63,326 nucleotides of DNA, taken from positions 1,819-65,144 of the forward strand of contig JAWAEZ010000001.1 in the NCBI GenBank assembly GCA_038890975.1, read 5' to 3'. Of the stretch, positions 45,574 through 63,326 are shown piece after piece (the stretch's first letter is position 1; the number at the start of each line of letters is the position of its first letter). Position numbers and translations under genes: made by a program. Source of the stretch: Candidatus Woesearchaeota archaeon. GTDB lineage: Archaea > Nanobdellota > Nanobdellia > Woesearchaeales > CAIVOO01. The notes under the pieces are model-generated. The model had not been told where the DNA came from. It saw nothing but the letters and a program-made list of their open reading frames with translations, and searched no databases.

Positions 45574-48500
45574 TTATATAATACCTAACGCTTTGAATAT
45601 GGGTTCGTCTATGCTTTCTTCTTTAGAAGGGATATTTCCTATTTTAGCAATTATTTTTGTTTCGCAGTCAGGCGCCTGTATTATTTCTTTACCGCTCATA
45701 CTAAAAACATTCATATCACTATTCGGACATTTTTGATAAATTTCAAAACTCATCTTGTCCTTAATTTTTTCTTCAACCTGCGTTCCGTCTATATAAAATG
45801 AAGGTACATCCCACTTAATTTTAACTGATTTTTCGTTAAGTGATTGTTTAGTAACTGACACCAAACCTGGGGGGATATCATTAACCGATGTACCTAAAGG
45901 CGTTTTTAAAAAAGAAGTGCTTTCTTGGTCTTTCCTATCAATAGCTGTGACACCGTAATAATATGAAATATCATCTTCCACAGAAAGAACATAATAAAAC
46001 TTACCAGTTTCTTCTTCGTAGATTAGCTGGTCCTGTTTTATTTCCATCAAACTTTGATCCCCATCTTTTGAATATTTAACTGCTAAAACATAATCACAAA
46101 CATTATTTTGTAAATTGCACCGCACCCCCACAAATTTATATACACTAATTGCTGAACCAACATCAATATTTTTTACTAGATTTATGTCTGGTGAAGATTT
46201 TGCTTTTTCTAAATCTAAATTATTGAATGCTCTCTGTGATTCATAAATCTTGTAACCTACAACATCTCCAGCTACACTTTTGTCCCAGCTTAATAATAAA
46301 AGTTGTTTTCTTCTCTTTAAATCCTCTGCTTTGACATCCTCTACCGGTGGTGGAGGGAGGTCTTTAGTCTCTAAAGCGAATCTATAAACCAAAGGTGTTT
46401 CCTCAAGTTTTCCATCCATTTGGTTTATGCCAAATACTTTATTTTTCTTACTAACAGCGCAAATTTTAATTATGTTGTTCTGTGAAATGTCACATTTAGG
46501 TAAATTCGCCTTATCTTTCTCAAAAGATAACTTTTTTTCTTTGTAATATCTCAAGATGTAATTTTTCTCTTCTAGGTAATTATTGAAAATCATTCCATTT
46601 GTTCTTATTTCCTTGGGGAATATTGTATTGAAAACTCCTGAGTATAATTCCAAAGAATAAGGAATATTGGGCGCAACTAATAAAAAATCTTTAGGGGTTA
46701 TTTCAGTTACTACTATTTTTAAATTTGGAATGTTTCTAATTTCTGGAATTTCACAATAACAACTATCTGTTTGGGAATCTCTACAATCCTCATACCTTTC
46801 TACAAAATCATTAATAAAAGCTTCTTCTTTTCTCTCACAATAAGTATACCACCCATTATCGTTTGTTGTTTGTCCTTGCTTTTTAAAATAAAAAGAAAAA
46901 TCTTCATTCGATCTTGACTTTTCTGAAAAACATTCTAAAATATTTTTTTCGTTGCGGCACTGCTCAAAATATTCTCTTGAGTAATCTTCCAATAATCGGT
47001 ATTCAGAAAAATCTTTATCCACTTCTACGCTGAAAGAAGGGAAAACGTTATAAGCGCCATATAATATTTCCTCTTCCGGAGAGTTTTGCACAGAAATAGG
47101 CGGACAGAGTTCTGGGGAGCCATATGCGAATGCTTTTGGTATGACTACAATAAAATTTGCTACTTTCCTATCAACACTGCTTTTAAGTACTTTGTTTTGT
47201 CCTTCATAATTGTAATACATCTGTGTAGAACCTCCGCCATCAAGGTCTAGTGCGTCTTGACAATTTTCGTTATCGCGTAAATAATCTAAAAAAACTTGTA
47301 TATTTCCTCCACTCTCAGTAGTTATAAGTTTTAATTTATTTTCTTTAGTGATACATACACCTGTTAATCTACTTCCGGAATCTTCTCCAGCTTTCAAAAT
47401 TCCATTCACAGCATATTGTATATCGCTGTTTTCTCGTAGTAATACCTTCTTAGCTTCTTCAACATTGGGCACTTCCAAAATTTTTGGTTGCCCATTTTGT
47501 ACCACAAAATAACCTTTTTTCTTTGTATAATAGAAGGGACTAATAATTTTTCCATCCTCTATATAAATCCCTTGTGGCCTTCCATAAAGCTCATAGTTAC
47601 TAACCATACCTTCATACTCATTGTAATTCGGATGCTCGTCAGTGTCTTTAACTTGGTTCCCTCTCTCAAAAAAAGCGGCATTCACCGCTGCCACCACGTT
47701 CAATTGATTCCACTTTATATCAGAAATAGATAATCTACAATCGTTATTACATTTTTTTCTTGTTCTATCCATTATAGTTTTAGCTGACATTGTTCTTACA
47801 TCGAAATAATTAACATCTATTTCTATTATGTTCATCAAACCAAAATTTGTTTGTTTTGTTGTTAAGGAAATCGCATCTTTAGGGATTTTTTTAATTTCTG
47901 TTTTTTTATAATCTTCTTTAATGTAATTTGTAGGGTCTAAGATAATTTGTTGGTCGTTATCCAGAGTTATGGCATTATGTGTTTTGTATAAAGTTGTTGC
48001 GCCTTCCCCGCTTCTCTCCCTTTCCAACACACTATCTTGAAGAGGCCATTGACATAAATTTTTATCTTTACTTTTTGCTCGCTTCCAATAATTACTGCCG
48101 TACTCAAAATGCCACCCCTCATGATGGTAATTAACCCATCCTGCTTGGCACGCAATTTTTATTTTTTCTTCATAAGAAATATGCTCGCGTGATGGGTCGT
48201 TCGGATCGCACTCCACCCAAATATCCATTGCATAACCATTATAATGAGGGCAATGTTTAAAGTTTTCTTCTGTGTACCCCTCTTTCATAATTTTACCTGC
48301 ATCGTCTCTAGGAGGACAGTTTGTTTGAGGATTTTTTTCACTGGCGTCCCACTTCTCTTTGTATATCTTAAGGGATCTAAAGGGCGAAACTATTTTTAAT
48401 TTACAACCTCTTTGTTTGAACAGGGTGTAAAGCGGATAAATTTGTCTCACTGCTCCTTCTTTCAAAACGCAACAATCACCTGGTTCGCTGAAACAAACAT

Positions 48501-50670
48501 TTGTATTTACGCAAATTTTTTCCCCTTCAATTTCCGGGATAGGAACTAAATCTTGTCTTGAAAGGTCCTCATTTAAAACACCACCACCATAAACATCTCC
48601 TGGTTGGCAGTTTTCATTTACAAGTGAAGAGAATTTCTCTTCTCCGATACCTTGTAAAGATTTTATCCCTCCTTCGGTAACTAAAACTGCACTTAATAAA
48701 CAACCAACACCTTGATATCCATTTTGTTTATAATCACTAAAAGATTTTATTCCTTTACAAATATTGTTTTTAGATTCGTCATCTTTAAAACTTTTAAAAT
48801 ATTTCTGTCCTTCTTTTATGTACATAGAAGAAGTCCCCCCACCATCAATTTTAATTGCGTAGTTACAGTAATTTTTTAATTGGTCCGCTAAATTTCTCAA
48901 AGTTATATCATTTAGATAAACAAATAACCCTATTGTTCCATCTTTTCCGATACATATACCATTTTTTTCTTTTCCTTTAGGGTGTTTTTTTTCATAGGCA
49001 TATTCTGGATCTTTATCATTAAAAGAAGAAACTTTACCTTCATCAACCAAAAGCACCCCTTGTAATGCGTATTTAATATTTGTTTTAGAAGGAAATAATC
49101 TATTAAATTGTTGTAAAGACACAATACCAAATTCGTCATTATTCGTTATATAAAAAACATGACGTGTTTCACAAAAATCTAAATTTTCATAAGGAAAATG
49201 TTGTTTTCCTTCTTCAATGTATAAACAAGTGGAGCCTACACTTTTAGTAGAACTGCCCCTTACTAAATTAGTATAGCCAAAAAAACCCCCATTCGTTGCC
49301 GCCGCTATTTTTAGACCCTTATTATTGGCGCTGTCAACAATTGTTTTAAGTGTAGCGAGATCCTGCCCAGTAATTTCCGTAGCACTACGTATTTTCAAAT
49401 ATTTTGGGGAAGATACCCATATCATCTTTAAATCGGAAGTTCCAGAATTTTGATTGCAATCCCCTTCTAATATTTTTCCTGTTGCTGCTTCCACGGGGCA
49501 TATTTTAAGTTTCCCATTTTCTGCTGCTTCCACAAGAACAAAAATGTTTTTGTTAGGGTAACCTCTTAACTCGTGTGACGAAGCAGTTCCCACAACAATT
49601 TGTTCCGTGTTCTCATCTATTTTGTTTCTTATATAGCAATGTTGATGGCCGGAGAATATTGCTATTATATCGTTATTCTCTTTAGCAATTGTTTGAAGAT
49701 TATTATTATACACATCATCCCTGCAGCTGGGGGAAGTTTTAATTGCTGGGAGATGAGTTATTATTATTGTGGGTTTATTCTTATTTTTTTCCAAATCTTT
49801 TTTAAGCCACTGGACATTTGCGTACTGGTTCTTATAATCAAGGAAAACAAAGTGGTAACCTTTGTAATCAAAAGAGTAAGAGTGAGCCCATTCGCCTTCT
49901 ATTGCTATGTTTTGTGGTTTTTTATCTGCCCAAAATTTATTGTAAGAACTTATCGTTTCTTGCTTATCATATTCGTGGTTTCCTGTTGTAGGGAATATTG
50001 GATAATTTTTTAGTTCTTTATACTCGGCAAAATTAAATTGCGTATTTGGCAAACAACAAGAAAAATCGCCTGCGTGCAATATTATTTCTGGGTCTAGTTT
50101 TTTAATTGTGTTGGATAAATCGCTACTGCTTATTCCCTTACTTGTGTGAGTATCGCTTATTACTACGAATCTGAATGCTTCTGCGTTGCTAGAAAGAATT
50201 ATTGAACAGAATGTTATAGTAAAAATCATAACTCCTACTTTTTTAAGATGTTTTCTTCTCAATAGAAAAATAATAAAAAAAATGAATATCACCAACAAAA
50301 ATGAAAAAATTATTATTTTCAAAATGATGTTTTCTTTTTTTACTTTTGTTTCTTCGCCTGATAAGTAAAATTCTTCCGCAAAAGAATTTGCCTCTTCTTC
50401 ACTATACCCCGCTTTTAAATATTTTTCTTTTATTTCTTCTTTTGTCAAATAGTTACATTTTCCTTTACAACATACCTCATTAACAAAGTCGCTGGTATTT
50501 TTTATTATTATTCCTATGCATTTTTGGTAATCTCCGCAAACTGCGATTCCTCCTGCCTCTGAACATGTTACTCCGTAGGCGTTTATTTCCTGCTGCGCAG
50601 AAATAGTTCTATTTATTAAGATAACAATTGCCAAAAATAATAATGTTTTAACAAAATCTTTGCGTTTCAT
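45574..50670 (-). CDS. 1698-aa secreted/membrane multidomain protein: Cys-rich N-terminus, 2 TM helices, metallophosphoesterase, NAGPA-like domain 1, M15/VanY-like peptidase, NAGPA-like domain 2, Fn3-like modules
   Basis: Signal MKRKDFVKTLLFLAIVILINRTISA. Metallophosphoesterase motifs VISDTH, HAGDF, GNHEYD, ITHLP, SGHQHC (nt ~49516-50175). NGGFF...IDGGGTSSMY (~48676-49428) and NAAFF...LDLDGGGSTQMY (~47131-47868). SPFRS...HYNGYAMDI...EGWHFEY (~48085-48468). C-terminal PPPPVED...LSWDKS...VGYKIY. SD AAGGTGA and an ATGA overlap with the SLT gene. Confidence 0.8.
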   Translation of the reverse strand: MKRKDFVKTLLFLAIVILINRTISAQQEINAYGVTCSEAGGIAVCGDYQKCIGIIIKNTSDFVNEVCCKGKCNYLTKEEIKEKYLKAGYSEEEANSFAEEFYLSGEETKVKKENIILKIIIFSFLLVIFIFFIIFLLRRKHLKKVGVMIFTITFCSIILSSNAEAFRFVVISDTHTSKGISSSDLSNTIKKLDPEIILHAGDFSCCLPNTQFNFAEYKELKNYPIFPTTGNHEYDKQETISSYNKFWADKKPQNIAIEGEWAHSYSFDYKGYHFVFLDYKNQYANVQWLKKDLEKNKNKPTIIITHLPAIKTSPSCRDDVYNNNLQTIAKENNDIIAIFSGHQHCYIRNKIDENTEQIVVGTASSHELRGYPNKNIFVLVEAAENGKLKICPVEAATGKILEGDCNQNSGTSDLKMIWVSSPKYLKIRSATEITGQDLATLKTIVDSANNKGLKIAAATNGGFFGYTNLVRGSSTKSVGSTCLYIEEGKQHFPYENLDFCETRHVFYITNNDEFGIVSLQQFNRLFPSKTNIKYALQGVLLVDEGKVSSFNDKDPEYAYEKKHPKGKEKNGICIGKDGTIGLFVYLNDITLRNLADQLKNYCNYAIKIDGGGTSSMYIKEGQKYFKSFKDDESKNNICKGIKSFSDYKQNGYQGVGCLLSAVLVTEGGIKSLQGIGEEKFSSLVNENCQPGDVYGGGVLNEDLSRQDLVPIPEIEGEKICVNTNVCFSEPGDCCVLKEGAVRQIYPLYTLFKQRGCKLKIVSPFRSLKIYKEKWDASEKNPQTNCPPRDDAGKIMKEGYTEENFKHCPHYNGYAMDIWVECDPNDPSREHISYEEKIKIACQAGWVNYHHEGWHFEYGSNYWKRAKSKDKNLCQWPLQDSVLERERSGEGATTLYKTHNAITLDNDQQIILDPTNYIKEDYKKTEIKKIPKDAISLTTKQTNFGLMNIIEIDVNYFDVRTMSAKTIMDRTRKKCNNDCRLSISDIKWNQLNVVAAVNAAFFERGNQVKDTDEHPNYNEYEGMVSNYELYGRPQGIYIEDGKIISPFYYTKKKGYFVVQNGQPKILEVPNVEEAKKVLLRENSDIQYAVNGILKAGEDSGSRLTGVCITKENKLKLITTESGGNIQVFLDYLRDNENCQDALDLDGGGSTQMYYNYEGQNKVLKSSVDRKVANFIVVIPKAFAYGSPELCPPISVQNSPEEEILYGAYNVFPSFSVEVDKDFSEYRLLEDYSREYFEQCRNEKNILECFSEKSRSNEDFSFYFKKQGQTTNDNGWYTYCERKEEAFINDFVERYEDCRDSQTDSCYCEIPEIRNIPNLKIVVTEITPKDFLLVAPNIPYSLELYSGVFNTIFPKEIRTNGMIFNNYLEEKNYILRYYKEKKLSFEKDKANLPKCDISQNNIIKICAVSKKNKVFGINQMDGKLEETPLVYRFALETKDLPPPPVEDVKAEDLKRRKQLLLLSWDKSVAGDVVGYKIYESQRAFNNLDLEKAKSSPDINLVKNIDVGSAISVYKFVGVRCNLQNNVCDYVLAVKYSKDGDQSLMEIKQDQLIYEEETGKFYYVLSVEDDISYYYGVTAIDRKDQESTSFLKTPLGTSVNDIPPGLVSVTKQSLNEKSVKIKWDVPSFYIDGTQVEEKIKDKMSFEIYQKCPNSDMNVFSMSGKEIIQAPDCETKIIAKIGNIPSKEESIDEPIFKALGII

Positions 50671-51860
50671 CCGTCACCTTGGCTTGTTATTTGCAGTTGT
50701 TCAAATTTATGTTTCAACGCCATAACTCTTTCAACATATCTCTCTGTTTCAGCGGGGATTTGTTGTAATGTTCCTTCTGCCGCAATTATATCTTCCCATT
50801 GAACCTCTTCAGGATTTTTAGAAATTTTTTCTGCCACTTTTTTGATTTTTGTTTTGTTTAATCCTCCGTTATAGGTTGCAAGAGCGAATCTTATATTATC
50901 TTTATATCCACCATAAACTTTATAAGCAAGATATTTCAGGTATTTAACTGCGGCTTTTATACTTTCTTCGGGGTCTGTTCTATAATCGTAATCTTCGCAA
51001 GGTTTTTTTCCTCCACCGCCCTTGCTACAAAGACCGTAACTTGCCGCTGTTCCAGGCATAAATTGTGTTAAACCAACAGCACCTACATAACTTCTTGCAT
51101 TAGGATTCCCCCCTGACTCTTGCATTATTAAAGCAACAATAAGCGATTCTGTAATGCCTGGAATCTCAGATGCTCCACCCTCTTCTTCTATTGCTTTTCT
51201 TATGAATTCTCCATATTTTAGGTATATCTGCTTTAGTTTTTCTTCTTCGCTACCTCTTATTTTAATATCTTGAGCGGTATTATAAGTTGTGTAACTAACC
51301 CCTGGCGTTATTACTCCTTTCTTTATTTCTAAACTTAGGGGAAGTTTTGCGTCGCCTGTTACTAATGTCTTTGGAGAAGAAGAATCACCGATGTTTACTA
51401 CGCTTATTTCATAATTTTTGTCCGTAGGTATCATAAGAGAAGGGGATAAACGAAAATATTCGTCTAATAAATTATTTAAGCTTTCGCCATATGCATTTTG
51501 AAGATTTTTATTTTTAGTATTATCCGCGTCTGGGATGCATTTGTCGTTGTCTAACTCCCAAACCGCAAAACCTGCATATCTTTGGCAATCCTCTGGCTTC
51601 TCTGGAAAACCTCCCATTCTGGCTGTTCTTAGAAATGCTTCTTGGGCTGCGAGTTTGGCTGATGTGTCGACATAAAATAGTGTTTCTTCTGCATCTTGGT
51701 ATGAAGAAAATAAAAGTACGGCCTTTAAACCTATGTTCCCTGCGAATTGTTTTTGCTCTCTTATTATGTAAAAAAGCATCGTGACCTGTGCTATTATCAG
51801 TCCTGTTACTACTATTATTATGAAAAATTTCGCTTTTTTATTTTTTATTATTTTTTTCAT
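50667..51860 (-). CDS. membrane-anchored lytic transglycosylase (SLT / GH23 domain)
   Basis: N-terminus KNKKAKFFIIIVVTGLIIAQV. SLT motifs LIVALIMQESGGNPNARSYVGAVGLTQFMPGTA...YNGG (nt ~50856-51233; putative catalytic Glu codon 51117-51119). Confidence 0.8.
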   Translation of the reverse strand: MKKIIKNKKAKFFIIIVVTGLIIAQVTMLFYIIREQKQFAGNIGLKAVLLFSSYQDAEETLFYVDTSAKLAAQEAFLRTARMGGFPEKPEDCQRYAGFAVWELDNDKCIPDADNTKNKNLQNAYGESLNNLLDEYFRLSPSLMIPTDKNYEISVVNIGDSSSPKTLVTGDAKLPLSLEIKKGVITPGVSYTTYNTAQDIKIRGSEEEKLKQIYLKYGEFIRKAIEEEGGASEIPGITESLIVALIMQESGGNPNARSYVGAVGLTQFMPGTAASYGLCSKGGGGKKPCEDYDYRTDPEESIKAAVKYLKYLAYKVYGGYKDNIRFALATYNGGLNKTKIKKVAEKISKNPEEVQWEDIIAAEGTLQQIPAETERYVERVMALKHKFEQLQITSQGDG

Positions 51861-52351
51861 TGTTTATCAAACGCATAAGAGGAGGCGGTTATTACCTTAC
51901 GCCTTGGTGTAGGAAATCTAATTTCAGTAACTTTTATATGAGATGACAAAGAATCGCAATTATTCGTTAATGGGGATATTACAATTATTTCGTTTTTTTC
52001 TTCAAAATTAAAGGATATGCAAGATATTGATGAGTATATTTTATTTTTTTCTAAAGTTTCAATTATTTTGTCTTTTACTTCTTTGTTTCTTTTTAAATCG
52101 TAATCAATAAGGTAATCTGCTATTGTTTTTTGTTCGTCTACTGGTGTTTTTAAAATATTGAGCAGTTCCATTGTTTTTTCTTCTTTTAACAATTCATAAT
52201 ACATCGCGTAGTCAATCCTTGTAGAAACAGTTAATGCGATGTAAATTACTAAGAAGACCAAAAAATAAGCTATCACCGCCCACACATCTATTATTAACGA
52301 TGTCGCTATTCCTTTTTTATTTTTGATTATTTTATTTTTCACTAGTTTCAT
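51857..52351 (-). CDS. pilin-like protein (class III signal peptide-like N-terminus), 164 aa
   Basis: MKLVKNKIIKNKKG/IATSLIIDVWAVIAYFLVFLVIYIAL. ATGA overlaps on both sides. Confidence 0.6.
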   Translation of the reverse strand: MKLVKNKIIKNKKGIATSLIIDVWAVIAYFLVFLVIYIALTVSTRIDYAMYYELLKEEKTMELLNILKTPVDEQKTIADYLIDYDLKRNKEVKDKIIETLEKNKIYSSISCISFNFEEKNEIIVISPLTNNCDSLSSHIKVTEIRFPTPRRKVITASSYAFDKQ

Positions 52352-56147: not shown

Positions 56148-56226
56148 ATCACCTCTTTACCCGTTATTATTACGGATTAATGGAAAGGTATCCACTTGTT
56201 ATTTAATAATAGTAGTATTTAAATTT
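56148..56226 (-). promoter_or_regulatory. putative internal promoter plus Shine-Dalgarno for the mini-pilin array
   Basis: Minus strand reads GAGGTGAT (56148-56155) 3 nt before the ATG. A/T-box aatttaaata (56216-56225) lies ~70 nt upstream of the start. This is the only sizeable intergenic gap in the 18-kb operon. Confidence 0.4.
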
Positions 56227-56246
56227 TTTGAATATTATTTAAATGG

Positions 56247-57230: not shown

Positions 57231-57383
57231 TTACCCTCCTATTTGTAGTATTGAAGCTAATTTATTCCAAAGGTCTGAAGCATTCCCCGATAAAATTGTG
57301 ATAATAACAATAAGAGCAATTATTAAAAGGAGAATTATAACCCACTTAGCAATCTCGTCCCAAGTTATTGAAGCTTTCCCCAT
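57231..57383 (-). CDS. unlisted 50-aa micro-ORF, Flp-like minimal pilin or single-TM peptide
   Basis: Own translation: MGKA/SITWDEIAKWVIILLLIIALIVIITILSGNASDLWNKLASILQIGG*. It falls below the track's length cut-off. Its stop TAA abuts the next ATG, and its last codons supply that gene's SD. Confidence 0.5.
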   Translation of the reverse strand: MGKASITWDEIAKWVIILLLIIALIVIITILSGNASDLWNKLASILQIGG

Positions 57384-57425: not shown

Positions 57426-58310
57426 TTATCTTGTTCTGAGGGATATGGGTAAATATTGGCACCCTAACTCTTTAAGTGTTTCTTCATTTTCGTAAGGTAA
57501 GAAGGATATCATCGCTATACTATCCGAGTTCCCCCCACTAAATATAGATGTTAATAATTCTAAACCTCCAACCACAACCGCCCCTCCTGTTGCCAACATA
57601 AACGAACCTCCAGCCAGAATCACTGCTATGCCTGTCCCTGCAGCAGAAATAACCCCCATAGATATAGCCCCAACCAGTTTATTTTTCTCAGCGCCAAGAG
57701 TAACTAACTTACTAAAAAAAATTTTTACTTCGTCAATAGTGCTCAATTTTTTTTGATAAATGAACACGACCGCATATTTTTTAGATGTGTCTATAACCCC
57801 CTCACCTACTTCTCCACTAATTTGTTTGGCTATTCCGTTGGTAAAATAAGTTACATAATCAACATTTTCAAAAGGAACATTATTCTCTAACAAATATCTA
57901 TTAAAATCTTTTATTTCCTTATTTTTTTCTTTAAAATCTATTAATGCGTAAACTGCGCAATAAGTTCCTGACTCTTGAAAAAGATCAATATTCCCTCTCC
58001 CAAAAACATCCCACGCTTCTGCCATCGTAATGGCTATCTCCTTTTTCATTTTCTCTGCTTGTTTTGGTATCTCTGGATTACCAGTTAGTGTTAATTCTAG
58101 AAGTGGGCATTCTATCGTGTAAGGTCTTAGTTCATAACCTTTAATGGTTGTTAGGGAATATAAAAGAACGGAGTTTTTGCATTGCCTCTTGTGTATCTCC
58201 CTCTCGTTTGCTTCTTTAACTTTTGAAATAAAAGTTAAATAAAATATCGCTGCAACTATTACAATTAAAAACCCTGCTATTATCTTCGTGCTAAGCGCTT
58301 TTTTGTTCAT
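57426..58310 (-). CDS. pilin-like N-terminus plus a C-terminal Gly/Ala-rich hydrophobic segment
   Basis: MNKKA/LSTKIIAGFLIVIVAAIFYL. C-terminus GAISMGVISAAGTGIAVILAGGSFMLATGGAVVVGGLELL. ATG at 58310 preferred over the track start at 58331. Confidence 0.6.
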   Translation of the reverse strand: MNKKALSTKIIAGFLIVIVAAIFYLTFISKVKEANEREIHKRQCKNSVLLYSLTTIKGYELRPYTIECPLLELTLTGNPEIPKQAEKMKKEIAITMAEAWDVFGRGNIDLFQESGTYCAVYALIDFKEKNKEIKDFNRYLLENNVPFENVDYVTYFTNGIAKQISGEVGEGVIDTSKKYAVVFIYQKKLSTIDEVKIFFSKLVTLGAEKNKLVGAISMGVISAAGTGIAVILAGGSFMLATGGAVVVGGLELLTSIFSGGNSDSIAMISFLPYENEETLKELGCQYLPISLRTR

Positions 58311-58311: not shown

Positions 58312-59028
58312 TTAGTTAAGCAGCATTTCACATCCTAATTTTTCAATTTCTTTATCTTTTACCAATACTACTGCTGAAAAAGGTGTGCCTCCTATACTCA
58401 TTGAAGGAATATTAAAATATTTCTTCATTTCATCAGGAAACTTTAAATTAGGAGAATCTACAATCGCTACGAAAACAACATAATAATTTGAGGATGTGGA
58501 TATTGGCTCTTCAAAATAATATCTTTTCTCTTCATTAAAAGATAAAAAATCTGAATAAGAGAATTGAGCTCCTGTTGGAATATTCTTATCAAGCCAATCT
58601 TTCATATTTTCTATTGTGAGACCTTTTTTCTCAAAATAAATAATTGAACATAACAAACATGCTTGGTCGTCGGCGCCAATAAATTTATTCGTAAAATCAT
58701 AATATTTTCCTTTTCCCATTTTGTACCAACAATCATACATAGCATCTGCTATTTTTCTAGAAATATAATTTTTAATTTTATCATCTTCTTTCGGCAGTTC
58801 TGAATTTTTTATGTATATGTATTGCATTGGGCAATCTAAATTAAATATGGTCTCTTTACCTCCTATTTTCGCGGCTTGCTCCGCTTCAACACTTAACCTA
58901 CAATACTCTCTTATATTTGTTTTTTTTAAATAAAAATTTATTTTGTTAGTAAGAACTAAAATTATTATAAATACTACTATTAGGATTATTAATGTCAGTA
59001 GGCTTACCTGCACTGCTTTTTTTCTCAT
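58312..59028 (-). CDS. pilin-like protein, 238 aa
   Basis: MRKKA/VQVSLLTLIILIVVFIIILVL. Confidence 0.6.
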   Translation of the reverse strand: MRKKAVQVSLLTLIILIVVFIIILVLTNKINFYLKKTNIREYCRLSVEAEQAAKIGGKETIFNLDCPMQYIYIKNSELPKEDDKIKNYISRKIADAMYDCWYKMGKGKYYDFTNKFIGADDQACLLCSIIYFEKKGLTIENMKDWLDKNIPTGAQFSYSDFLSFNEEKRYYFEEPISTSSNYYVVFVAIVDSPNLKFPDEMKKYFNIPSMSIGGTPFSAVVLVKDKEIEKLGCEMLLN

Positions 59029-59165
59029 CTAAGCACCTTCAAAACATAATTCCTAAATATTATCATTAGTATGATAAAAATAACTATTGCTATTGTTATC
59101 CACATCAAGGTTGTCATAAGCCCTGTTTCTTGTTCAATTTCTTGTGCCTTTTTATTTAACTGCAT
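59025..59165 (-). CDS. 46-aa single-TM micro-protein (short version of the 74-aa track ORF)
   Basis: MQLNKKAQEIEQETGLMTTLMWITIAIVIFIILMIIFRNYVLKVLR. The longer track ORF would overlap the upstream gene by 94 nt. Confidence 0.45.
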   Translation of the reverse strand: MQLNKKAQEIEQETGLMTTLMWITIAIVIFIILMIIFRNYVLKVLR

Positions 59166-59713
59166 AAGGATAATTCCACCGTCAGTGTTTGGGGGTATAA
59201 CGGAAGATAATAAAAATCCTTTTGGATGTACTGGCTCTCCTCTATACATTTTTCAATACCATAAGATATGTGTATTTGGGGATTTTCTTTGCTTATATAC
59301 GCCATAAACTCATATTTTTTATTCCAAACTTTTAATGTGTTGTTGAGCAAATTTTCTATTATTGTTGACAAATAACTACAGACATAACTTTCTTCTATAT
59401 AAATATCCCCTTCAACACCTCCTCCGCAGATTCTGCAACTAGTAGTTTCTTGCCCTGCGGGAGCGCACCTACCGCAATCTATCAGCAAAGTGCTAATTCT
59501 ATCGTTATTACAATTCGTAGAGGTTGAAAGTAACGCGCCTAAGATATTAGTTGCCATTTGTTTTTCTGAAAACTCTCTTTTTTGTTCTGTAACCCTTGTA
59601 CGTTTCATAGTATTGCTAACTAAAATTAGTATTCCTATTGATAATATTATAACTACTATTGCTATTCCCAACATCTCCGTCTGAGATTTTTTTTTATTCC
59701 TAAATTTTATCAT
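59156..59713 (-). CDS. pilin-like protein, 185 aa, with a 4-Cys cluster
   Basis: RNKKKS/QTEMLGIAIVVIILSIGILILV. Cys cluster CNNDRISTLLIDCGRCAPAGQETTSCRICGGG. Confidence 0.65.
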   Translation of the reverse strand: MIKFRNKKKSQTEMLGIAIVVIILSIGILILVSNTMKRTRVTEQKREFSEKQMATNILGALLSTSTNCNNDRISTLLIDCGRCAPAGQETTSCRICGGGVEGDIYIEESYVCSYLSTIIENLLNNTLKVWNKKYEFMAYISKENPQIHISYGIEKCIEESQYIQKDFYYLPLYPQTLTVELSLCS

Positions 59714-59715: not shown

Positions 59716-60237
59716 TTATCTTTGTTTGACATAAACAGCTACATTAGCGTAACCGAATGAAAAACGCATTTCTATAGGATTATAAATAGCAATTGGTATT
59801 TGCGTTGTTATATAACCTGAAATGTTCCCGCCAGTAAAATCGTAAATATTCCATTCCTTTTTTACAGGATACATCGAATAAATTGTTATATTTGCAAAAC
59901 CAAAAGAATTAAAATAGTGTTGAATAGCTCCTTGGTCTTTTTCTTCCATTATAATTTTTTGCATTGCTTCTATTTTATAAACATCAAAACAGCTAAATTT
60001 TATAACTTCTAATATAGAGCATTGAAGTTCTGGAAGAAAAGAAACCGTCTGGGCCACTCTTATTGCTCTTGAAATTATATCAACTTCTTGTTGCTCTTTT
60101 ATAGATGTCTGGCTGTACCTTGACCAAAAAATCATACCCATTATTACTAAAACAAAAAATATCAAAAGCACTGCTACACTCTCGCCTATTTTTATTTGCG
60201 ACTTCTTCTTTGCTTTCTTTATTTTTATAAACCTCAT
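59716..60237 (-). CDS. pilin-like protein, 173 aa
   Basis: KKAKKKS/QIKIGESVAVLLIFFVLVIMGMIF (Q at +1 and E at +6). Confidence 0.65.
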   Translation of the reverse strand: MRFIKIKKAKKKSQIKIGESVAVLLIFFVLVIMGMIFWSRYSQTSIKEQQEVDIISRAIRVAQTVSFLPELQCSILEVIKFSCFDVYKIEAMQKIIMEEKDQGAIQHYFNSFGFANITIYSMYPVKKEWNIYDFTGGNISGYITTQIPIAIYNPIEMRFSFGYANVAVYVKQR

Positions 60238-60259: not shown

Positions 60260-61300
60260 TTAATAAACTGCTGCACATGATTTTTCAAGCACTTGGCGGT
60301 TAATGTTGTTTATTATTGTCATTTTGTTTGTTATCTTTTCTATATCCGGCGGTGTTGAATTTGCTGCTTCTACAATTTCTAAAATGTCGCTGTACGCTCT
60401 TGATACCGACTTACAATCAGGATTATCTTTGTAGTCCATTTCTAAATTTTTTTCTCGCTCAGCGTATATCTGGCTAACATAGAGCAATCTCTTAAAAGCT
60501 TTATAATATGAACAATTAAATAATTCTCTATTTTCGGAAAATACTGCTCCATACTTAAGAGGATCCCCTACTATTGTTATAGGAAGATAGCCAAACTCTT
60601 GTAATTTATTTCCTTTCTTAACAAAAAATCTAACAGCATCATTAGGGTAATTTATTAGCTGGACTGCACTAACGCTGTCATCGCCCATATTCTTAATAAA
60701 ATTTGGGAGAAAATCATTATTCGTTATTGTTGATACGGGTGTATCTTCAAAAAATATTAGTTTTATTTTATAATTATTTTTGTCTCCTAAGTTTTTAAAA
60801 TCTCTATAGTTTATAACTTCCTTGGTAATGTTATCTGGGAGGGCTAAAAAAAGTTCTTCAGCAGACCTCTTTGCGGTATTATAGTAAATAACGTATCTTA
60901 CATTCTCAGTTGTCATATAAAGAAAATTAGCTGTTTTATAGGGGACATTCCAATCTTGGCTCCACACAATCATCTGCCTGCCTTTTAATAAATCCGGTCC
61001 GAAAACAATTCTGTCCTGAAACTGCTTATCAATTCCTAATGCTGTTATCCTATCACACCCGAGATTGAAATCTATTTTAGGCATGTCAAAAATTTGACCT
61101 GTTTTGGGTATTGTAAGAGCTCCGCTTATTATTAGGTCTATTTTTCCTAGGATGTCAAATGCTAGTTTTTTATCTGCTGCTTTTTTTTGAGCATCAACTA
61201 CTGCTATGAAAAACAGTAGTATAATTGCCCCTACTATGAGTATAAAAACCCAGTTAAACTGGACTTCTATCTGAGATTTTTTTTGTTTTCCGTAGAACAT
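60260..61300 (-). CDS. pilin-like protein, ~346 aa
   Basis: MFYGKQKKS/QIEVQFNWVFILIVGAIILLFFIAV. ATG at 61300 preferred over the track start at 61342. Confidence 0.65.
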   Translation of the reverse strand: MFYGKQKKSQIEVQFNWVFILIVGAIILLFFIAVVDAQKKAADKKLAFDILGKIDLIISGALTIPKTGQIFDMPKIDFNLGCDRITALGIDKQFQDRIVFGPDLLKGRQMIVWSQDWNVPYKTANFLYMTTENVRYVIYYNTAKRSAEELFLALPDNITKEVINYRDFKNLGDKNNYKIKLIFFEDTPVSTITNNDFLPNFIKNMGDDSVSAVQLINYPNDAVRFFVKKGNKLQEFGYLPITIVGDPLKYGAVFSENRELFNCSYYKAFKRLLYVSQIYAEREKNLEMDYKDNPDCKSVSRAYSDILEIVEAANSTPPDIEKITNKMTIINNINRQVLEKSCAAVY

Positions 61301-61301: not shown

Positions 61302-61790
61302 TTAAGGCAGGGATATTTTTGCTTTATCACCGAACCCCTCAATTCTCACAGCAATCGTGCCTTGTTTAACAGGAAAACAGAGGAAACCTCCATTGTCACT
61401 GACCCATAATTTATCAATATAAAAAGGAACCCCATCTGGAAGAGGGAACACATTATTGTTTACTTTATCAGCAACGCTGTTTGCTATAATTGGGTACTTT
61501 AAGCTGTCTATGGGGCTTGCGTCGCCTCTTGCTATTAGAGAGGGATCAACAAAACATACCTCTGTAAATTTAACAGGCACAGAAAATGACTCTACTCTAA
61601 CAGTGCCGTAGTCAGAGCTTGTATAAACTATTGTATCTCCAATATTTCTTTGAAATTTGACTAATGCGAGTTGCTCCTGTTTTTTTCCTATATTTTTAAC
61701 TGCTGCGTAACCATAATAAAGAATAAGTACAACTATTATCGTTGAGATTATATAAATAAAAATCTGACCTATTTGTGATTTCTTCTTCAT
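61302..61790 (-). CDS. pilin-like protein, 162 aa
   Basis: MKKKS/QIGQIFIYIISTIIVVLILYYGY. Confidence 0.65.
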   Translation of the reverse strand: MKKKSQIGQIFIYIISTIIVVLILYYGYAAVKNIGKKQEQLALVKFQRNIGDTIVYTSSDYGTVRVESFSVPVKFTEVCFVDPSLIARGDASPIDSLKYPIIANSVADKVNNNVFPLPDGVPFYIDKLWVSDNGGFLCFPVKQGTIAVRIEGFGDKAKISLP

Positions 61791-61801: not shown

Positions 61802-63326
61802 TTATCTATTTTTATTATTCTTTTTCTGTAATTTTTCAAGTTTTTCAGGGGATTTCCCTTTTCCTATTTTTTCAAGTTTTTCGAATGCTTCTTCTTCCTT
61901 AATTTTTTCTAATTTTTCAAAAACTTCCTCTCTCTTTTTTTCTAATTCTTCAAGGCGCTTAAATTCGTCTTTTTGTATTGTTAGTGGTTGTTTTGGAATT
62001 ACCCTCTTAGGCATTGGCTTTAATTTTTGAATGATTCTCGGCAGTATTACCTTCTGCGCAGGTTGTTGCATTTTCTTAGAGTTCTCTTCTCTTAACTCTC
62101 TTGGTTTTCCAAAAATTCCAAAAATTTTTTCTCTTTCAATTTCTTTTTGCGCTCTTTCCTTTTCTTTTCTCGCTTCTAATTTAATCTTTTCTACAATAGA
62201 AAGCGGTTTTGTTTTCTGCCCTTCCTTAACGGCTGGTGTTCGTAGTTGTTGTGGTGCCGGCTTAGGTTCCTCTTTTTTAGTCGCTTTTTTAACATAATAT
62301 TTCTTATAAAATAAATAACCAGAACCTCCTGATGTGGATAATAAACCAACAATTAATATTAGTATTTTTATTATTTTCAATAAGGTTAGGCCCCTTATTT
62401 CTGCCTCGCTTATTATCGAAACATTACCCTCTATTGGTGGCTGTACGCATTCTTTCGCGAAACATTTGCCTGATAAACAATCAGAATCTACTAAACAGTA
62501 TTTTCCTACACTACATTTTGGACAATCAACGCCGCCACAATCAACATCAGTTTCGTAACCATTTTTCAAAGAATCGTTACACAAATGAATTGCGCATATT
62601 TTATTCACACTACAATAATTTGTTATGCAATCGTTATCTGAGCCGCATCTTTGGTTAATTTCGCATTTTGCACAATCAATGCCGCCACAATCAACATCAG
62701 TTTCGTAACCATTTTTTATCCCATCATCACAAGAAGGCTGTTTGCATATTCCGTTAGCACAAAATAAAGATAGACAATCTGAATCTATACCGCAGGTTTT
62801 TTCAATATCACATCTTCGGCAGGTACCTCTTCCGCCACAATCAACATCAGTTTCTTCGTAATCTTTTATATTATTCGAACAGTGGTCAGCGGCTATAATT
62901 TCTATCTTTTCGTTTCCTCTTGCTTTGTTACCTGCAATGTCTTGTGCTTCGTAACAAAAATAAGATGTTGAAGAAACACTAACAAGATATGCTTCTCTTT
63001 GGGTATCATATTCCAAAGGCGACATTGTACCGATACAACTAGGACTGTTAGATATTAAATATCGATAGGATGAATTATCACATCTTGTTTCTGCGTCTAT
63101 ACAAACAAAAGAAACTTCCACGCCGGAGGGGGTTAAGTTTCTCTTTAGAAATATTGATGGTGGTTTATTATCGCAAAGTACGCCTGATTCGTCATAAATT
63201 ATTATATTGCCCGATCCTACATCTCCTTCAATCCCAACATTGTTTACGGCTCTTGCTGAAAAACCGTAACTAGCCGCGTTTGTAAGATTTAGTTTATTGC
63301 CTTTTTCATCCCTATCCACGGACAGT
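61802..63326 (-). CDS. large surface protein, partial (N-terminus off the right edge): Ig/Fn3-like segment, three Cys-rich 50-aa repeats, one TM helix, K/E-rich cytoplasmic tail
   Basis: The frame is open through 63326; the track start at 63319 is a GTG. ...EAQDIAGNKA..., then 3x (NGYETDVDCGG..C..C....C..D.DC.S..C....C), TM LLKIIKILILIVGLLSTSGGSGYLFY, and a tail with an EKLEK periodicity. Confidence 0.7.
   Translation of the reverse strand, partial: LSVDRDEKGNKLNLTNAASYGFSARAVNNVGIEGDVGSGNIIIYDESGVLCDNKPPSIFLKRNLTPSGVEVSFVCIDAETRCDNSSYRYLISNSPSCIGTMSPLEYDTQREAYLVSVSSTSYFCYEAQDIAGNKARGNEKIEIIAADHCSNNIKDYEETDVDCGGRGTCRRCDIEKTCGIDSDCLSLFCANGICKQPSCDDGIKNGYETDVDCGGIDCAKCEINQRCGSDNDCITNYCSVNKICAIHLCNDSLKNGYETDVDCGGVDCPKCSVGKYCLVDSDCLSGKCFAKECVQPPIEGNVSIISEAEIRGLTLLKIIKILILIVGLLSTSGGSGYLFYKKYYVKKATKKEEPKPAPQQLRTPAVKEGQKTKPLSIVEKIKLEARKEKERAQKEIEREKIFGIFGKPRELREENSKKMQQPAQKVILPRIIQKLKPMPKRVIPKQPLTIQKDEFKRLEELEKKREEVFEKLEKIKEEEAFEKLEKIGKGKSPEKLEKLQKKNNKNR
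62435..62884. repeat. three in-frame 150-bp tandem repeats (coding, Cys-rich module)
   Basis: ccgccacaatcaacatcagtttc recurs at 62532, 62682 and 62832, an exact 150-nt period. Confidence 0.85.

Follow-up and report, generated by a model that had tools for sequence, protein, structure and literature searches.

A Woesearchaeota gene cluster encoding both type-IV-pilin-like proteins and peptidoglycan hydrolases

INTRODUCTION

Enzymes of the SLT, M15/VanY, M23, Amidase_2 and Amidase_3 families are specific for murein containing MurNAc and D-amino acids, and pseudomurein does not have these bonds. To our knowledge, archaea do not make such murein. Proteins with SLT domains have been published for Woese- and Pacearchaeota (PMC8204110, PMC9723730), and according to published analyses the peptidoglycan hydrolases of DPANN archaea do not act on pseudomurein (PMC12352652). 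The Epd pilins of M. maripaludis carry class 3 signals with a Gln at position +1; their genes are distributed over no fewer than four loci, with a separate locus for the pilus ATPase and platform genes of this organism (PMC3875500). One preprint reports that DPANN genomes lack components of type IV pili (10.1101/2020.05.14.094862).

Here, we describe a gene cluster in a 63,326-nucleotide stretch of Woesearchaeota DNA (the window), which an earlier note had interpreted as a pilus operon with its own wall-cutting enzymes. Both the pilin-like cluster and the swapping of its catalytic heads appear to be undescribed.

RESULTS

A packed gene cluster in archaeal DNA

Based on the ORF list and on reading of the letters, positions 45574-63326 contain 21 tightly packed genes (W01 to W21), all on the minus strand, to which all coordinates below refer. 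We verified the ATGA overlaps at 50667-50670, 51857-51860 and 52348-52351, and the single large gap measures 102 nt, so that the packed single-strand unit described before stands. Since the reading frame of W21 is still open where the window ends, the cluster extends past 63326. The 102-nt intergenic region (56145..56246) shows, when its letters are read directly, a TATA-like box, TTTAAATA, as well as a Shine-Dalgarno-like sequence, GAGGTGAT, ahead of W11, and probably acts as an internal promoter from which the small-subunit genes are transcribed.

The archaeal context claimed previously was evident from Topo VI, RPA, RIO kinase, GatDE, Cdc48 and intron-bearing tRNAs, and the cluster shares the uniform GC content of the window. 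The GC content is ~0.31 on both sides of the 45.5-kb boundary, and both GC and skew are continuous there. Just outside the system lie an RPA-like OB-fold protein and YdjM (44060..45516, identified with Pfam), which serve as boundary marker. Wherever the DNA fetched from other genomes extends to this 3' flank, the cluster is followed by RPA (12 loci) and by YdjM (7 loci). Moreover, 13 kb of the locus was reproduced exactly in an independent Logan assembly. No integrase was found at the window boundary, no Mur-type synthesis genes in the window, and a search of 2.9 million IMG/VR viral contigs yielded zero relatives.

Among the GTDB species genomes scanned, a W19 relative is encoded in 329 (Woesearchaeota/Nanoarchaeia, GC 30-59%). 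The W19 family comprises 2097 clusters at 50% identity and the W11 family at least 2241 members. The examined loci repeat the gene order from W21 to W01, and all named homologues belong to Woesearchaeota or Nanoarchaeia, in line with the DPANN-like host that had been proposed. The cluster is therefore lineage-wide, common to hundreds of DPANN (Woesearchaeota) archaea, and no curiosity of one genome. Complete Woesearchaeal genomes with the cluster include OZ246410.1 (774 kb) and CAZJXP010000001.1 (969 kb).

Prepilin-like N-termini

As the earlier note had read them, the N-termini of 19 products consist of a basic leader and a G/A/S residue ahead of a hydrophobic helix that is 18 or more residues long. 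In a fixed N-terminal test, requiring [KR][GAS], no more than 11 residues after it and then a stretch of 18 hydrophobic residues without charge, the whole beginning within the first 45 aa, 14 of the 18 cluster genes (greedily called) passed versus 1 of 49 in the rest of the window; of the outside genes with an N-terminal TM segment, 1/8 passed. The [KR][G/A/S] site is conserved, and in 85-99% of the orthologues of W02, W07-W11, W17, W19 and W20 G/A/S comes directly after the last basic residue. As in archaeal pilins of the EppA type, position +1 is frequently a Gln. Because the motif is kept in genomes of 57-59% GC, where the site persists as R[GA]/Q (the slash marks the putative cleavage site), a Lys bias cannot explain it. 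In W17, W18 and W19 a Glu close to the helix start is invariant or nearly so, and additional pilin-like proteins upstream of the cluster open with [KR][GSA]Q[IV][TS][LM]. Residue -1 is often Ala or Ser and not Gly, and the Glu is at +3 or +6 and not at +5; the bacterial N-methylation pattern PS00409 matched only 1 of 2821 ORFs. W04, W13 and W16 have a putative site without a conserved small residue. Overall, these data support the view that the cluster N-termini resemble class III (prepilin-type) signals in their behaviour.

The AlphaFold model of W18 (pLDDT 85) shows a 53-residue helix (14-66) whose first residue is the predicted +1 Gln (Q14); two short helices and an antiparallel sheet of four strands come after it. 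That of W19 (pLDDT 91) has an N-terminal helix of 55 residues (9-63), followed by an alpha/beta domain. A Foldseek comparison, one of the checks suggested earlier, did not match either model to solved pilins: the best TM-scores were 0.25-0.4, to unrelated folds, with no significant match for W18 and no PDB match for the alpha/beta domain of W19. Pilin or class III signal families were not matched by 142 orthologues (Pfam) or by the window products (Pfam and NCBIfam).

As to an assembly machinery, a T2SSE-type ATPase and an A24-like peptidase motif were absent from the window and from the fetched DNA of 84 loci (reaching at most 10 kb to the left and right of the matched gene), and neither the window ORFs scanned nor the precomputed Pfam listings of other loci contained T2SSE or T2SSF families. 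Thus, neither the window nor, in the loci examined, the surrounding 10 kb yielded a PilB/FlaI ATPase, PilC/FlaJ platform or prepilin peptidase. Of the pilus with its own wall cutters, the prepilin-like N-termini and the hydrolases (see below) hold up, and because pilin HMM or fold matches and a nearby ATPase, platform and peptidase were not found, the pilus itself remains something that we infer. The Epd pilins of M. maripaludis, with their +1 Gln and assembly genes elsewhere, provide a precedent for a cluster without its own motor.

Large and single-copy subunits

W21 (61802..63326, open frame), 5'-truncated at the window edge, is not pilin-like; it is a large surface protein in which three Cys-rich 'DVDCGG..C..C' repeats are combined with a C-terminal TM segment and a tail rich in Lys and Glu. 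Its homologues, of 950-1680 aa, have the same position in 65 loci, and upstream of them lie giant adhesin-like proteins (CarboxypepD_reg, Big_13, TSP3_bac, Laminin_G_3) or pilin-like proteins of ~400 and ~750 aa. The next four genes encode pilin-like proteins. W20 (162 aa, MKKKS/QIGQIFIYII..., 61302..61790) has homologues in 70/84 loci, 89% of them with G/A/S after the last basic residue. W19 (346 aa, KQKKS/QIEVQFNWVFILIVGA, 60260..61300) is the most conserved marker of the cluster, its residues E12, Q14, W17 and four Cys being invariant or nearly so. In the family of W18 (173 aa, KKKS/QIKIGESVAVLLIFF, 59716..60237; homologues in 81/84 loci) E19 is invariant and KKSQ almost so, and in that of the Cys-rich W17 (185 aa, KKKS/QTEMLGIAIVVIIL, 59156..59713; 76/84 loci) the site has G/A/S in 97%, with Q11, E13 and G16 invariant.

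W16 (59025..59165, ORF) is a small membrane protein of ~46 aa when read from an internal Met (MQLNKKA/QEIEQE...TM), and at its position in three other loci (L003, L089, L091) genes of 42-44 aa are called. The paralogues W15 (238 aa, MRKKA/VQVSLLTLIIL, 58312..59028; homologues in 34 loci, 80% with G/A/S at the site) and W14 (294 aa, MNKKA/LSTKIIAGFLIV, 57426..58310, start taken from the Logan gene call; 31 loci) are pilin-like, and W14 has a Gly-rich hydrophobic C-terminus. W13 (50 aa, MGKA/SITWDEIAKWVIILLL, 57231..57383) is a small membrane protein with homologues in 10 loci; its site is not conserved, and genes of 51-62 aa are called at its position in L002 and L003. The pilin-like W12 (327 aa, MKNKKA/VSNEIKNAALIVIV, 56247..57230, ORF), which has a coiled-coil region and a C-terminus rich in Cys, is poorly conserved in sequence, and similar-sized genes are found at the same position elsewhere.

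Small subunits and left half

W11 (102 aa, MVKKA/QGMSLNVVIIAALGLLVLVVL..IFTGR, 55836..56144) is a small pilin-like protein with a disulfide-rich C-terminus and the family consensus KK[AGS]QGxSxNxIIIAAIALxVLVVLxxIFTGR. Its orthologues and paralogues (n=89) have G/A/S at the site in 98%, and W11 is a candidate major subunit. It is followed by its paralogues W10 (98 aa, MGKKA/AELSMNLIIVAVIL, 55527..55823, ORF and family alignment), W09 (82 aa, MNKKG/AELTLTMIVVVIIL, 55276..55524, ORF), with a 6-Cys C-terminus and a sub-threshold Defensin_beta match (7.2e-4), and W08 (100 aa, KKIA/AELSINIIIIAVIS, 54987..55289, ORF), with a sub-threshold AtDEF-like match (3e-4), and by W07 (88 aa, SRKA/EVNWVVVGFVLAVIVL, 54737..55003, ORF and gene call), which is also small, Cys-rich and pilin-like. 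The pilin-like W06 (272 aa, MINKKS/IEIAITTLMGVVIAF, 53875..54693, ORF) has a very Cys-rich ectodomain. W04 (182 aa, SKRG/INAYDAVYWSARILFVLLML, 52348..52896; homologues in 22 loci) is N-terminally anchored with a weakly conserved site, and W03 (164 aa, NKKG/IATSLIIDVWAVIAYF, 51857..52351, ORF) is again pilin-like.

Murein hydrolases and head swapping

The earlier note had recognized three murein hydrolase-like products, and all three assignments stood up. W02 (397 aa, NKKA/KFFIIIVV..., 50667..51860) joins a pilin-like N-terminal module of ~200 aa to an SLT (GH23) lytic transglycosylase head (Pfam 1.3e-24, aa 230-341). Its catalytic E-S, GLTQ and YNGG motifs align with those of MltC and Slt70, indicating that the SLT domain is intact. 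The N-terminal module of W02 was found in 28 loci, with alternative heads by lineage: M15/VanY, M15_3, Amidase_2, M23 and, weakly, 3D. The swapping affects a single N-terminal module whose position is fixed, directly upstream of a gene resembling the C-terminal part of W01. This architecture shows W02 to be a putative modular pilin, with a conserved pilin-like stem and a catalytic head.

W01 (1698 aa, 45574..50670; Pfam, with M15 assigned by homology and Zn motifs) comprises a Sec-type signal, a Cys-rich mini-domain, a TM segment, Metallophos (aa 166-346), NAGPA (~456-623), M15/VanY (~736-857), a second NAGPA (991-1176) and a conserved C-terminal module of ~500 aa, which in many loci is a separate protein of ~550-600 aa right after the hydrolase gene. 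The Metallophos and the two NAGPA domains had been missed before. The M15/VanY domain scored 17.8 bits against Pfam, below the cut-off of 25. It is homologous to proteins at the orthologous position that pass the Pfam cut-offs (phmmer 1.6e-10) and retains the Zn-ligand motifs, so the predicted M15/VanY assignment is confirmed through orthologues and motifs. W05 (308 aa, KQKRG/MKELYKIIIEIFLAI, 52913..53839, from alignment) has a pilin-like N-terminal domain of ~140 aa and a C-terminal domain whose window copy gave zero Pfam matches. The W05 orthologue in locus L061 is an Amidase_3 (7.6e-13), the family profile matches amidase 7rag (E=0.005), and the GHGG and SxH Zn ligands are lost in the window copy, showing a degenerate domain of Amidase_3 ancestry. 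These results support the conclusion that the murein hydrolases are real, and integral and positionally conserved members of the cluster. Because these enzyme families cut murein, which archaea are not known to make, their target would be the bacterial wall.

DISCUSSION

We consider it rather probable that this is an ancient, vertically inherited Woesearchaeota (GTDB Nanoarchaeota) cluster that encodes a multi-subunit surface apparatus of type-IV-pilin-like proteins armed with peptidoglycan hydrolases. A possible, and less likely, reading is that the products are type II N-terminally anchored proteins, neither processed nor polymerised, which form a fixed envelope complex or tethered exoenzymes that scavenge amino sugars and peptides from bacterial wall debris. 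This would fit the failure to find an assembly ATPase, platform or peptidase close to any of the loci examined, the lack of pilin HMM or fold matches, the sites of W04, W13 and W16, which want a conserved small residue, and the preprint on DPANN genomes cited above. However, a plain anchor leaves unexplained why G/A/S follows the basic residues in 85-99% of proteins from families that are 25-50% identical and span 30-59% GC, and why the +1 Gln and early Glu are near-invariant. It also does not account for the ~53-residue helices from the predicted cleavage site, nor for the tandem array of five tiny paralogues, which has a promoter-like element of its own.

The same structural evidence would suit a competence-like uptake pseudopilus, a short fibre for DNA or nutrient uptake, whereby fratricin-like hydrolases lyse bacterial neighbours and the auxotrophic archaeon imports DNA and nucleotides. 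Murein hydrolases linked to competence in streptococci are an established precedent (10.1101/2024.09.27.615381), and the phosphoesterase and phosphodiester glycosidase domains of W01 could serve such a role. However, a ComEC-like channel, DNA-binding domain or nuclease was not identified in the cluster, and the giant adhesin-like proteins and swappable wall-cutting head fit host contact better, making this reading improbable. It is in any case a sub-case of the armed surface apparatus and not an exclusive rival.

Bacterial lytic transglycosylases of envelope-spanning machines, such as VirB1, FlgJ or EtgA, cut the sacculus of the producer, yet it is very unlikely that the hydrolases described here remodel the archaeon's own wall for fibre passage, considering their specificity for murein, the different bonds of pseudomurein, the published inactivity of DPANN hydrolases on the latter, and the missing Mur-type synthesis genes in the window. 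Foreign DNA is less likely still: the enzyme domains are of bacterial type and one related contig was binned as 'Candidatus Binatia bacterium', but the lack of an integrase at the window boundary and of relatives among 2.9 million IMG/VR viral contigs speaks against a virus or mobile element, and a chimera near 45.5 kb, which the earlier note had raised, is refuted by the unbroken GC and skew and by the conserved synteny, including the RPA and YdjM flank, in independent assemblies, one of which matches 13 kb exactly.

For the armed surface apparatus, the following mechanism can be envisaged. The genes would be co-transcribed from right to left, with an extra promoter before the small-subunit genes. 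The ~19 products with a short basic leader and long hydrophobic helix would be inserted in the membrane, after which a class III signal peptidase, encoded elsewhere, may cut after [K/R][G/A/S], often exposing a +1 Gln. The five tandem small Cys-rich proteins W07-W11 might be the shaft subunits of a pseudopilus or thin fibre, with the larger, single-copy W03-W06, W12, W14, W15 and W17-W20 as minor or tip subunits, and W21 and the giant upstream proteins as putative adhesins. The stem of W02 would present the catalytic head, SLT here and M15/VanY, M15_3, Amidase_2 or M23 in other lineages, W05 with its catalytically dead amidase_3 domain is probably a murein-binding module, and W01 may contribute its phosphoesterase, two phosphodiester glycosidase domains and M15 peptidase. 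The apparatus would then bind a bacterial cell and locally open the sacculus for attachment, penetration or feeding. The presence of pilin-like proteins and wall cutters in one cluster points to an apparatus with which these archaea may attach to, or attack, bacteria.

Layout, surroundings and spread of the cluster

As the earlier note had described, the cluster at 45574–63326, with 21 genes running from W01 (45574–50670) to W21 (61802 to the edge), is a single-strand unit: each sizeable ORF from 45574 to the right edge lies on the minus strand, the three ATGA start/stop overlaps are exact, and there is only one large gap, of 102 nt at 56145–56246. The frame of W21 is open up to base 63326, and the unit is therefore cut by the window. 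A 13.1-kb Logan contig that falls within the window reproduces 13 kb of the locus, and with the internal Met starts of an independent gene call on it the bigger apparent overlaps in the longest-ORF list vanish. The archaeal character of the rest of the window was also confirmed, with genes for Topo VI A/B, an RPA-like protein, RIO kinase, a KH/Dim2-like protein, GatD/E, GatA/B, Cdc48, deoxyhypusine synthase, RadB and HerA. The GC content is about 0.31 on either side of 45.5 kb, and all named homologues come from Woesearchaeota, Nanoarchaeota or Nanoarchaeia. The single large gap (56145–56246) contains, on the minus strand, an A-run followed by TTTAAATA, and GAGGTGAT lies 5 nt ahead of the W11 ATG. 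This TATA-like box and Shine-Dalgarno-like element precede W07–W11, which encode tandem small Cys-rich subunits, and the gap looks like an archaeal promoter and ribosome-binding site for these genes.

W19, the most conserved marker of the cluster, has 45 word-indexed homologues. A profile scan with W19, in which each GTDB species was represented by a single genome, gave relatives in 329 genomes, and an exhaustive HMMER search returned 2097 clusters at 50% identity, 1077 of them with E≤1e-30, while the family of the small subunit W11 has at least 2241 members. From the profile scan 80 loci were fetched, and 84 loci were used in the ORF comparison; GC content over all fetched loci ranges from 0.30 to 0.59. 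Comparison of the window proteins with the ORFs of the 84 loci using phmmer established that the order W21-W20-W19-W18-W17-(W16)-W15-W14-W13-W12-small subunits-W06-W05-W04-W03-W02-W01 recurs. W19 was found in 84 loci, W18 in 81, W17 in 76, W20 in 70, W21 in 65 and W11 in 62, the values for distal genes being minimum numbers, because the flanks extend over 10 kb only and the sequences diverge. For the fetched loci the first in-frame start codon was taken, which may make some N-termini too long. Where the fetched DNA extends that far, the RPA-like gene (12 loci) and the YdjM gene (7 loci) follow the cluster, as they do in the window. Upstream of W21, other loci encode either giant proteins of 1700–2300 aa with CarboxypepD_reg, Big_13 or TSP3_bac domains, or pairs of ~750- and ~400-aa proteins, one with Laminin_G_3; the counterparts in the window would lie beyond the right edge.

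Some database records and loci deserve mention. L049 (DATILO010000105.1), a locus of 59% GC with a full archaeal cluster, was deposited as 'Candidatus Binatia bacterium', a label that is probably due to mis-binning, and many loci are titled 'uncultured Methanosarcinales archaeon' though their relatives are Woesearchaeota. In some lineages unrelated genes are inserted within the cluster (L086 6535–9943; L089 5080–6780 and 11131–11694; L092 5155–6855), encoding a Ser/Thr kinase and an AsnC-type regulator, a Na+/H+ exchanger with TrkA_N, and an opposite-strand dCTP deaminase.

Prepilin-like N-termini

The N-termini were examined with a fixed test, in which [KR][GAS] and at most 11 residues are followed by 18 uncharged hydrophobic residues, starting within the first 45 aa. 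This test was passed by 14 of the 18 greedily called cluster genes versus one of the 49 genes in the other 45 kb; among the outside genes with an N-terminal TM segment, one out of eight passed. Once the four small genes that the overlap filter had removed are counted as well, the basic leader, small residue and hydrophobic helix proposed in the earlier note were found in 19 of the 21 products, W04 and W13 having the least canonical N-termini. The orthologue consensus is KK[AGS]QGxSxNxIIIAAIALxVLVVLxxIFTGR for W11, KKxQMEIxGLAIVVIL for W17, KKSQIKMGExIAVLxIFF for W18, KKAxIEVQFNWIFILIVGA for W19 and KKAQIxGQIFIYIL for W20. The last basic residue is followed by G, A or S in a fraction of 0.98 (W11), 0.97 (W17), 0.99 (W19), 0.89 (W20), 0.93 (W10), 0.85 (W08, W09 and the SLT protein W02) and 1.0 (W07) of the orthologues, and across ten families this site is kept in 85–99% of them. 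Genomes of 57–59% GC have it as well (MRRG↓QILGQ, MKRA↓QIKLFE, MARG↓QMEILG and MKRA↓QGISIN, with the arrow at the predicted cleavage site), and since the motif persists at this GC content, the Lys-richness of AT-rich genomes is not its explanation. Among the small-subunit paralogues, only K/R-[G/A/S]↓ fits all; in W08–W10, 'AE' stands in place of 'QG↓', the alternative cleavage site. The ~400- and ~750-aa proteins encoded upstream in other loci begin with [KR][GSA]Q[IV][TS][LM].

Judged from sequence, the short leader, small residue at −1 and frequent Gln at +1 are the layout of an archaeal class 3 signal. The EppA substrates of Methanococcus maripaludis have a 5–13-aa leader ending in Gly, Gln at +1 and Glu at +5 (PMC3875500). 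The comparison with EppA-type pilins, drawn in the earlier note, gave a mixed picture: Gln at +1 is present in W11 and W16–W20, and nearly invariant in the W17, W18, W20 and W11 families, and there was no DUF361 match. The −1 residue is Ala or Ser as often as Gly, and Glu is located at +3 (W17, W19) or +6 (W18), not at +5, and is absent from the W11 family. The models sought were Class_III_signal/DUF361, archaeal Pilin_N and N_methyl, and the NCBIfam archaeal flagellin N-terminal-like domain. No window product matched a curated pilin or class III model in Pfam and NCBIfam (E≤0.05–1), and a comparison of 142 orthologues with Pfam at E≤0.1 gave no pilin or class III signal family. The only relevant matches, far below cut-off, were to type_IV_pilV (E=0.032) and Flp1_like (~0.05), the others being generic TM-segment noise. 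The bacterial prepilin N-methylation pattern PS00409, [KRHEQSTAG]-G-[FYLIVM]-[ST]-[LT]-[LIVP]-E-[LIVMFWSTAG](14), was found in no window product and in one of 2821 ORFs, in L069. This ORF (18581–18829), a small-subunit orthologue from a high-GC genome, starts with MLWMKRG↓FTTVEIIAIMVVV (MKRG↓FTTVEI...) and is a full match to the pattern.

Predicted folds and the small Cys-rich subunits

The model of the pilin-like protein W18, based on a 37-sequence alignment (pLDDT 85), consists of a helix at residues 14–66, two short helices and a four-stranded antiparallel sheet, and the long helix starts exactly at the predicted +1 Gln. As modelled, W18 resembles in its general architecture a type IV pilin, whose fold has an N-terminal helix of ~50 residues packed against an antiparallel β-sheet. 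The W19 model (pLDDT 91) has a helix at residues 9–63, followed by a large alpha/beta domain. Foldseek searches against the PDB with both models gave no significant match and no solved pilin, and the fold evidence is therefore suggestive rather than a family assignment. Profile searches against the PDB with the W11, W17, W05 and W02 N-terminal families likewise found nothing significant except an amidase; for W11 the best match, an archaeal 'flagellin-like' filament subunit, had E=1.7 and was not counted.

The C-termini of the small subunits (window 54737–56144; orthologues in L002–L084) contain 4–6 Cys, arranged as C-x6-C-x3-C-x12-C-x4-CC in W09. Sub-threshold matches to defensins recur, with values of 7.2e-4 for Defensin_beta, 3e-4 for an AtDEF-like family and 7.8e-5 for Defensin_beta_2, and with Defensin_big matching in 3 orthologues. 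This resemblance may be a mere shared Cys pattern, or may reflect a defensin-like knot on a pilin-like helix.

Murein hydrolase domains and head swapping

The SLT domain of W02 is well supported (Pfam 1.3e-24, 86.4 bits versus a cut-off of 21.3), and alignment to MltC (7.7e-10) and Slt70 showed that the catalytic Glu-Ser (ES) is conserved, as are GLTQ and YNGG, its forms of the GLMQ and AYNxG signatures. The 1698-aa protein W01 contains Metallophos, two NAGPA phosphodiester glycosidase domains and an M15/VanY-like segment. The direct match for this last assignment, made in the earlier note, is sub-threshold: the segment (~aa 736–857) scores 17.8 bits against a Pfam cut-off of 25 (E=0.003) and has no PDB sequence match, but its homologues (phmmer 1.6e-10) in L067 (46.7 bits), L074 (33.9 bits) and L071 (31.2 bits) are above cut-off, and L033 likewise has a homologue of the segment that passes the Peptidase_M15 or VanY cut-offs. 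The motifs SPFRS, CPHYNGYAMD and EGWHFE of W01 align with those of the Pfam-passing orthologues, corresponding to the substrate motif SxxRS and to the Zn-binding motifs H-x6-D and ExxH/ExWH. These enzyme domains are extra parts, fused in the window to a conserved ~500-aa C-terminal module that is a separate protein elsewhere. The N-terminus of W01 (aa 1–165; window 50176–50670) consists of a Sec-type signal and a Cys-rich mini-domain, then a strong TM segment and a further signal-like stretch that ends in AEA, as if a small secreted protein had been fused to the enzyme array; in L006, an ORF at the locus end (20583–21020) is homologous to W01 aa 9–83 (9.5e-14).

All orthologues of W05 have a ~140-aa pilin-like domain, and some have a C-terminal domain in addition. 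In L061 this C-terminal domain scores as Amidase_3 (7.6e-13), and the profile of the family matches the amidase 7rag. The window copy has no Amidase_3 match, and its Zn ligands (the GHGG His, the Glu and the SxH His) are replaced by DSTGQG and EIRG. The homology to L061 and 7rag, together with the lost zinc ligands, therefore makes 'degenerate amidase_3' a correct description, and by its sequence the domain appears to be a degenerate relative, not an active member, of the family.

In 28 loci, the gene immediately upstream of the gene for the W01 C-terminal module encodes the same ~200-aa N-terminal module, with a [KR]K[AGS] leader, a TM helix, the motif 'IG..Q..L....AE..LFY.DQSAK' and two invariant Cys, and the C-terminal head on this W02 stem varies by lineage. 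The head is SLT in the window, L002, L006, L007, L011, L019, L062 and L089, Peptidase_M15 or VanY in L033, L067, L071 and L074, Peptidase_M15_3 in L028 (1.8e-11), Amidase_2 in L039 (1.5e-28), Peptidase_M23 in L064 (5.3e-18), and a sub-threshold 3D domain in L017 and L070; the SLT heads of L019 and L089 also score for Phage_lysozyme2. Thus, at least five Pfam murein-hydrolase families, acting on glycosidic, amide and peptide bonds, are exchanged on one stem at one fixed position, indicating that murein cleavage is the conserved function of the W02 position. The choice of head would follow the wall chemistry of the target.

Other features of the window

A fluoride riboswitch (crcB motif) was detected on the plus strand at 36797–36866 (43.4 bits versus a cut-off of 34), ~10 nt upstream of a 70-aa hydrophobic ORF (36878–37090) and ~220 nt upstream of a 139-aa ORF (37087–37506). 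Three Rfam tRNA matches of 88–112 nt (1067–1165, 13470–13557 and 37531–37642) have a length that can accommodate an intron; ARAGORN missed two of them and read the third as tRNA-Tyr with anticodon 'ata', which is probably an intron artefact. A GatA/GatB-type amidotransferase pair and a GatD/GatE pair are both present within the 63 kb (1901–4762 and 19949–23369), and the genes for a Mre11-like phosphoesterase (7376–8569) and a HerA-like protein (10124–11644) lie on the same strand, ~1.5 kb apart. The region 30141–35056 encodes two multi-TM proteins (518 and 449 aa) without a Pfam match, followed by a GT2 glycosyltransferase and a 229-aa anchored protein starting with VREIKG↓KYFIAAF, the only non-cluster product to pass the N-terminal test.

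Assembly machinery and possible explanations

Among the window ORFs scanned with Pfam there was no T2SSE ATPase (PilB/FlaI), T2SSF platform protein (PilC/FlaJ) or A24 prepilin peptidase (PibD/FlaK/EppA), and an A24-like GxGD peptidase motif was found neither in the window nor in the 84 loci (fetched DNA, up to 10 kb on each side). A Walker-A motif scan of the 84 loci returned only RadA, MCM and Rad50-type proteins, and the precomputed Pfam listings for long contigs that carry four homologues of the small pilins or of W19 contained no T2SSE, T2SSF or A24 peptidase. A machinery unlinked from the pilin genes is usual for archaeal pili: in M. maripaludis, the pilin genes are spread over four or more loci, apart from the locus of the ATPase and platform genes (PMC3875500). 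Nanoarchaeal TFF ATPases for which no pilins could be identified were noted by Makarova et al., and He et al. stated that T4P components are missing in DPANN (10.1101/2020.05.14.094862).

From this computational analysis, we consider it rather probable that the cluster encodes a fibre or pseudopilus of pilin-like proteins or, if not that, a surface complex derived from pilins. Its subunits would be cleaved at the predicted site and polymerise, with the small Cys-rich W07–W11 forming the shaft, and with numerous minor subunits, adhesins and pilin-anchored murein hydrolases that would act on bacterial walls. A bacterial target is suggested because the enzymes belong to families, such as SLT and M15, with an established specificity for murein containing MurNAc and D-amino acids. 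A possible but rather doubtful alternative is that the products are unprocessed anchored exoenzymes or a complex. A competence-like uptake fibre with fratricin-like lysins, a sub-case of the pilin-like fibre, is unlikely. Remodelling of the producer's own wall by the hydrolases is highly improbable, as the producer has no sacculus and the target is therefore another cell. Least probable of all is an artefact or mobile element: the assembly chimera near 45.5 kb that the earlier note had considered, a joined bacterial fragment and a virus are excluded by the conserved synteny with the RPA/YdjM flank and by the lack of any viral relative of the cluster in IMG/VR.

Going beyond the pilin-derived fibre as such, we tentatively propose that it might be an unrecognised organelle and a hallmark of Woesearchaeota, with a shaft of tiny defensin-like knotted subunits and a tip that carries interchangeable SLT, M15, M23 or Amidase_2 heads on a common stem, the head matching the walls of bacterial hosts or prey in their chemistry and thereby determining the host range. 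Such a fibre may be assembled by machinery that is too divergent, or too unlike canonical TFF motors, to be recognised by current models.

Comparison with known systems and significance

The EppA-dependent Epd pili of M. maripaludis, archaeal TFF 'system 1', likewise comprise many pilins, both very small (67–76 aa) and much larger, and share with the cluster the short class 3 signals with +1 Gln and the separation of pilin genes from ATPase and platform genes (PMC3875500). System 1 has been reported from a few DPANN archaea and noted for its high pilin variety (10.64898/2026.04.22.720090). In contrast to Epd, the cluster has no DUF361/Class_III_signal HMM match and no eppA, differs in the −1 residue (A or S as often as G) and in the position of Glu (+3/+6, not +5), and has disulfide-rich heads and murein hydrolases, the latter being absent from Epd loci.

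The Streptococcus sanguinis pilins PilB and PilC carry a functional module grafted on a pilin stem, and the fibre displays the activity (PMC8179133). W02 and W05 resemble these modular pilins in combining a pilin-like N-terminal module with a C-terminal functional domain. However, the modules in the cluster are peptidoglycan hydrolases, exchanged between lineages (five Pfam families at one position) in an archaeon without murein, and W02 and W05 are candidate fibre components. VirB1 of type IV secretion, FlgJ and EtgA are also SLT-family enzymes encoded inside the operon of an envelope apparatus. These enzymes open the producer's own sacculus, and unlike them W02 has a pilin-like N-terminus instead of a Sec signal.

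Saccharibacteria and other CPR episymbionts are ultrasmall and host-dependent and bind their host by type IV pili (PMC11623550), and cryo-TEM has shown CPR pili reaching into host cells. Those pili are bacterial and have canonical PilB, PilC and PilD, whereas the cluster belongs to an archaeal symbiont and no motor was found near the loci. We know of no hydrolase fused to Saccharibacteria or CPR pilins. In phage endolysins and tail lysins, and in T6SS hydrolase effectors, glycosidase, amidase and endopeptidase cassettes are swapped, in response to the target wall, on a module for delivery or binding that stays conserved. The cluster shows the same cassette-like exchange of heads, but it has no viral relatives, is chromosomal and vertically inherited, and its delivery module is pilin-like.

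SLT proteins of Woesearchaeota and Pacearchaeota (fam00969; GH23) have been linked to binding or degradation of bacterial walls, with bacteria as possible hosts or prey (Castelle et al. 2021, PMC8204110; Vigneron et al. 2022, PMC9723730; PMC12352652). These papers treat them as isolated large extracellular enzymes, whereas here they are embedded among about 20 pilin-like genes. Castelle et al. (PMC8204110) also reported 51 mostly unannotated families as a module specific to Woesearchaeota and Pacearchaeota, which may overlap the cluster. The full-text literature searched, which covers few subscription journals, contained no description of the pilin-like cluster, the shared stem or the head swapping; these are apparently new, while the SLT proteins and the idea of bacterial walls as their target were already known.

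Woesearchaeota are among the most widespread DPANN groups, and we know of no cultured member. The cluster may supply pilins that have been overlooked in DPANN genomes; it would represent modular pilins in a second domain of life and could yield new archaeal wall-lytic enzymes. The swappable heads can be read from genomes and set against the co-occurring bacteria and the chemistry of their walls, and the conserved, lineage-wide coupling of pilin-like surface proteins and murein hydrolases lends concrete molecular support to the view that many Woesearchaeota live on, or prey on, bacteria and not archaea.
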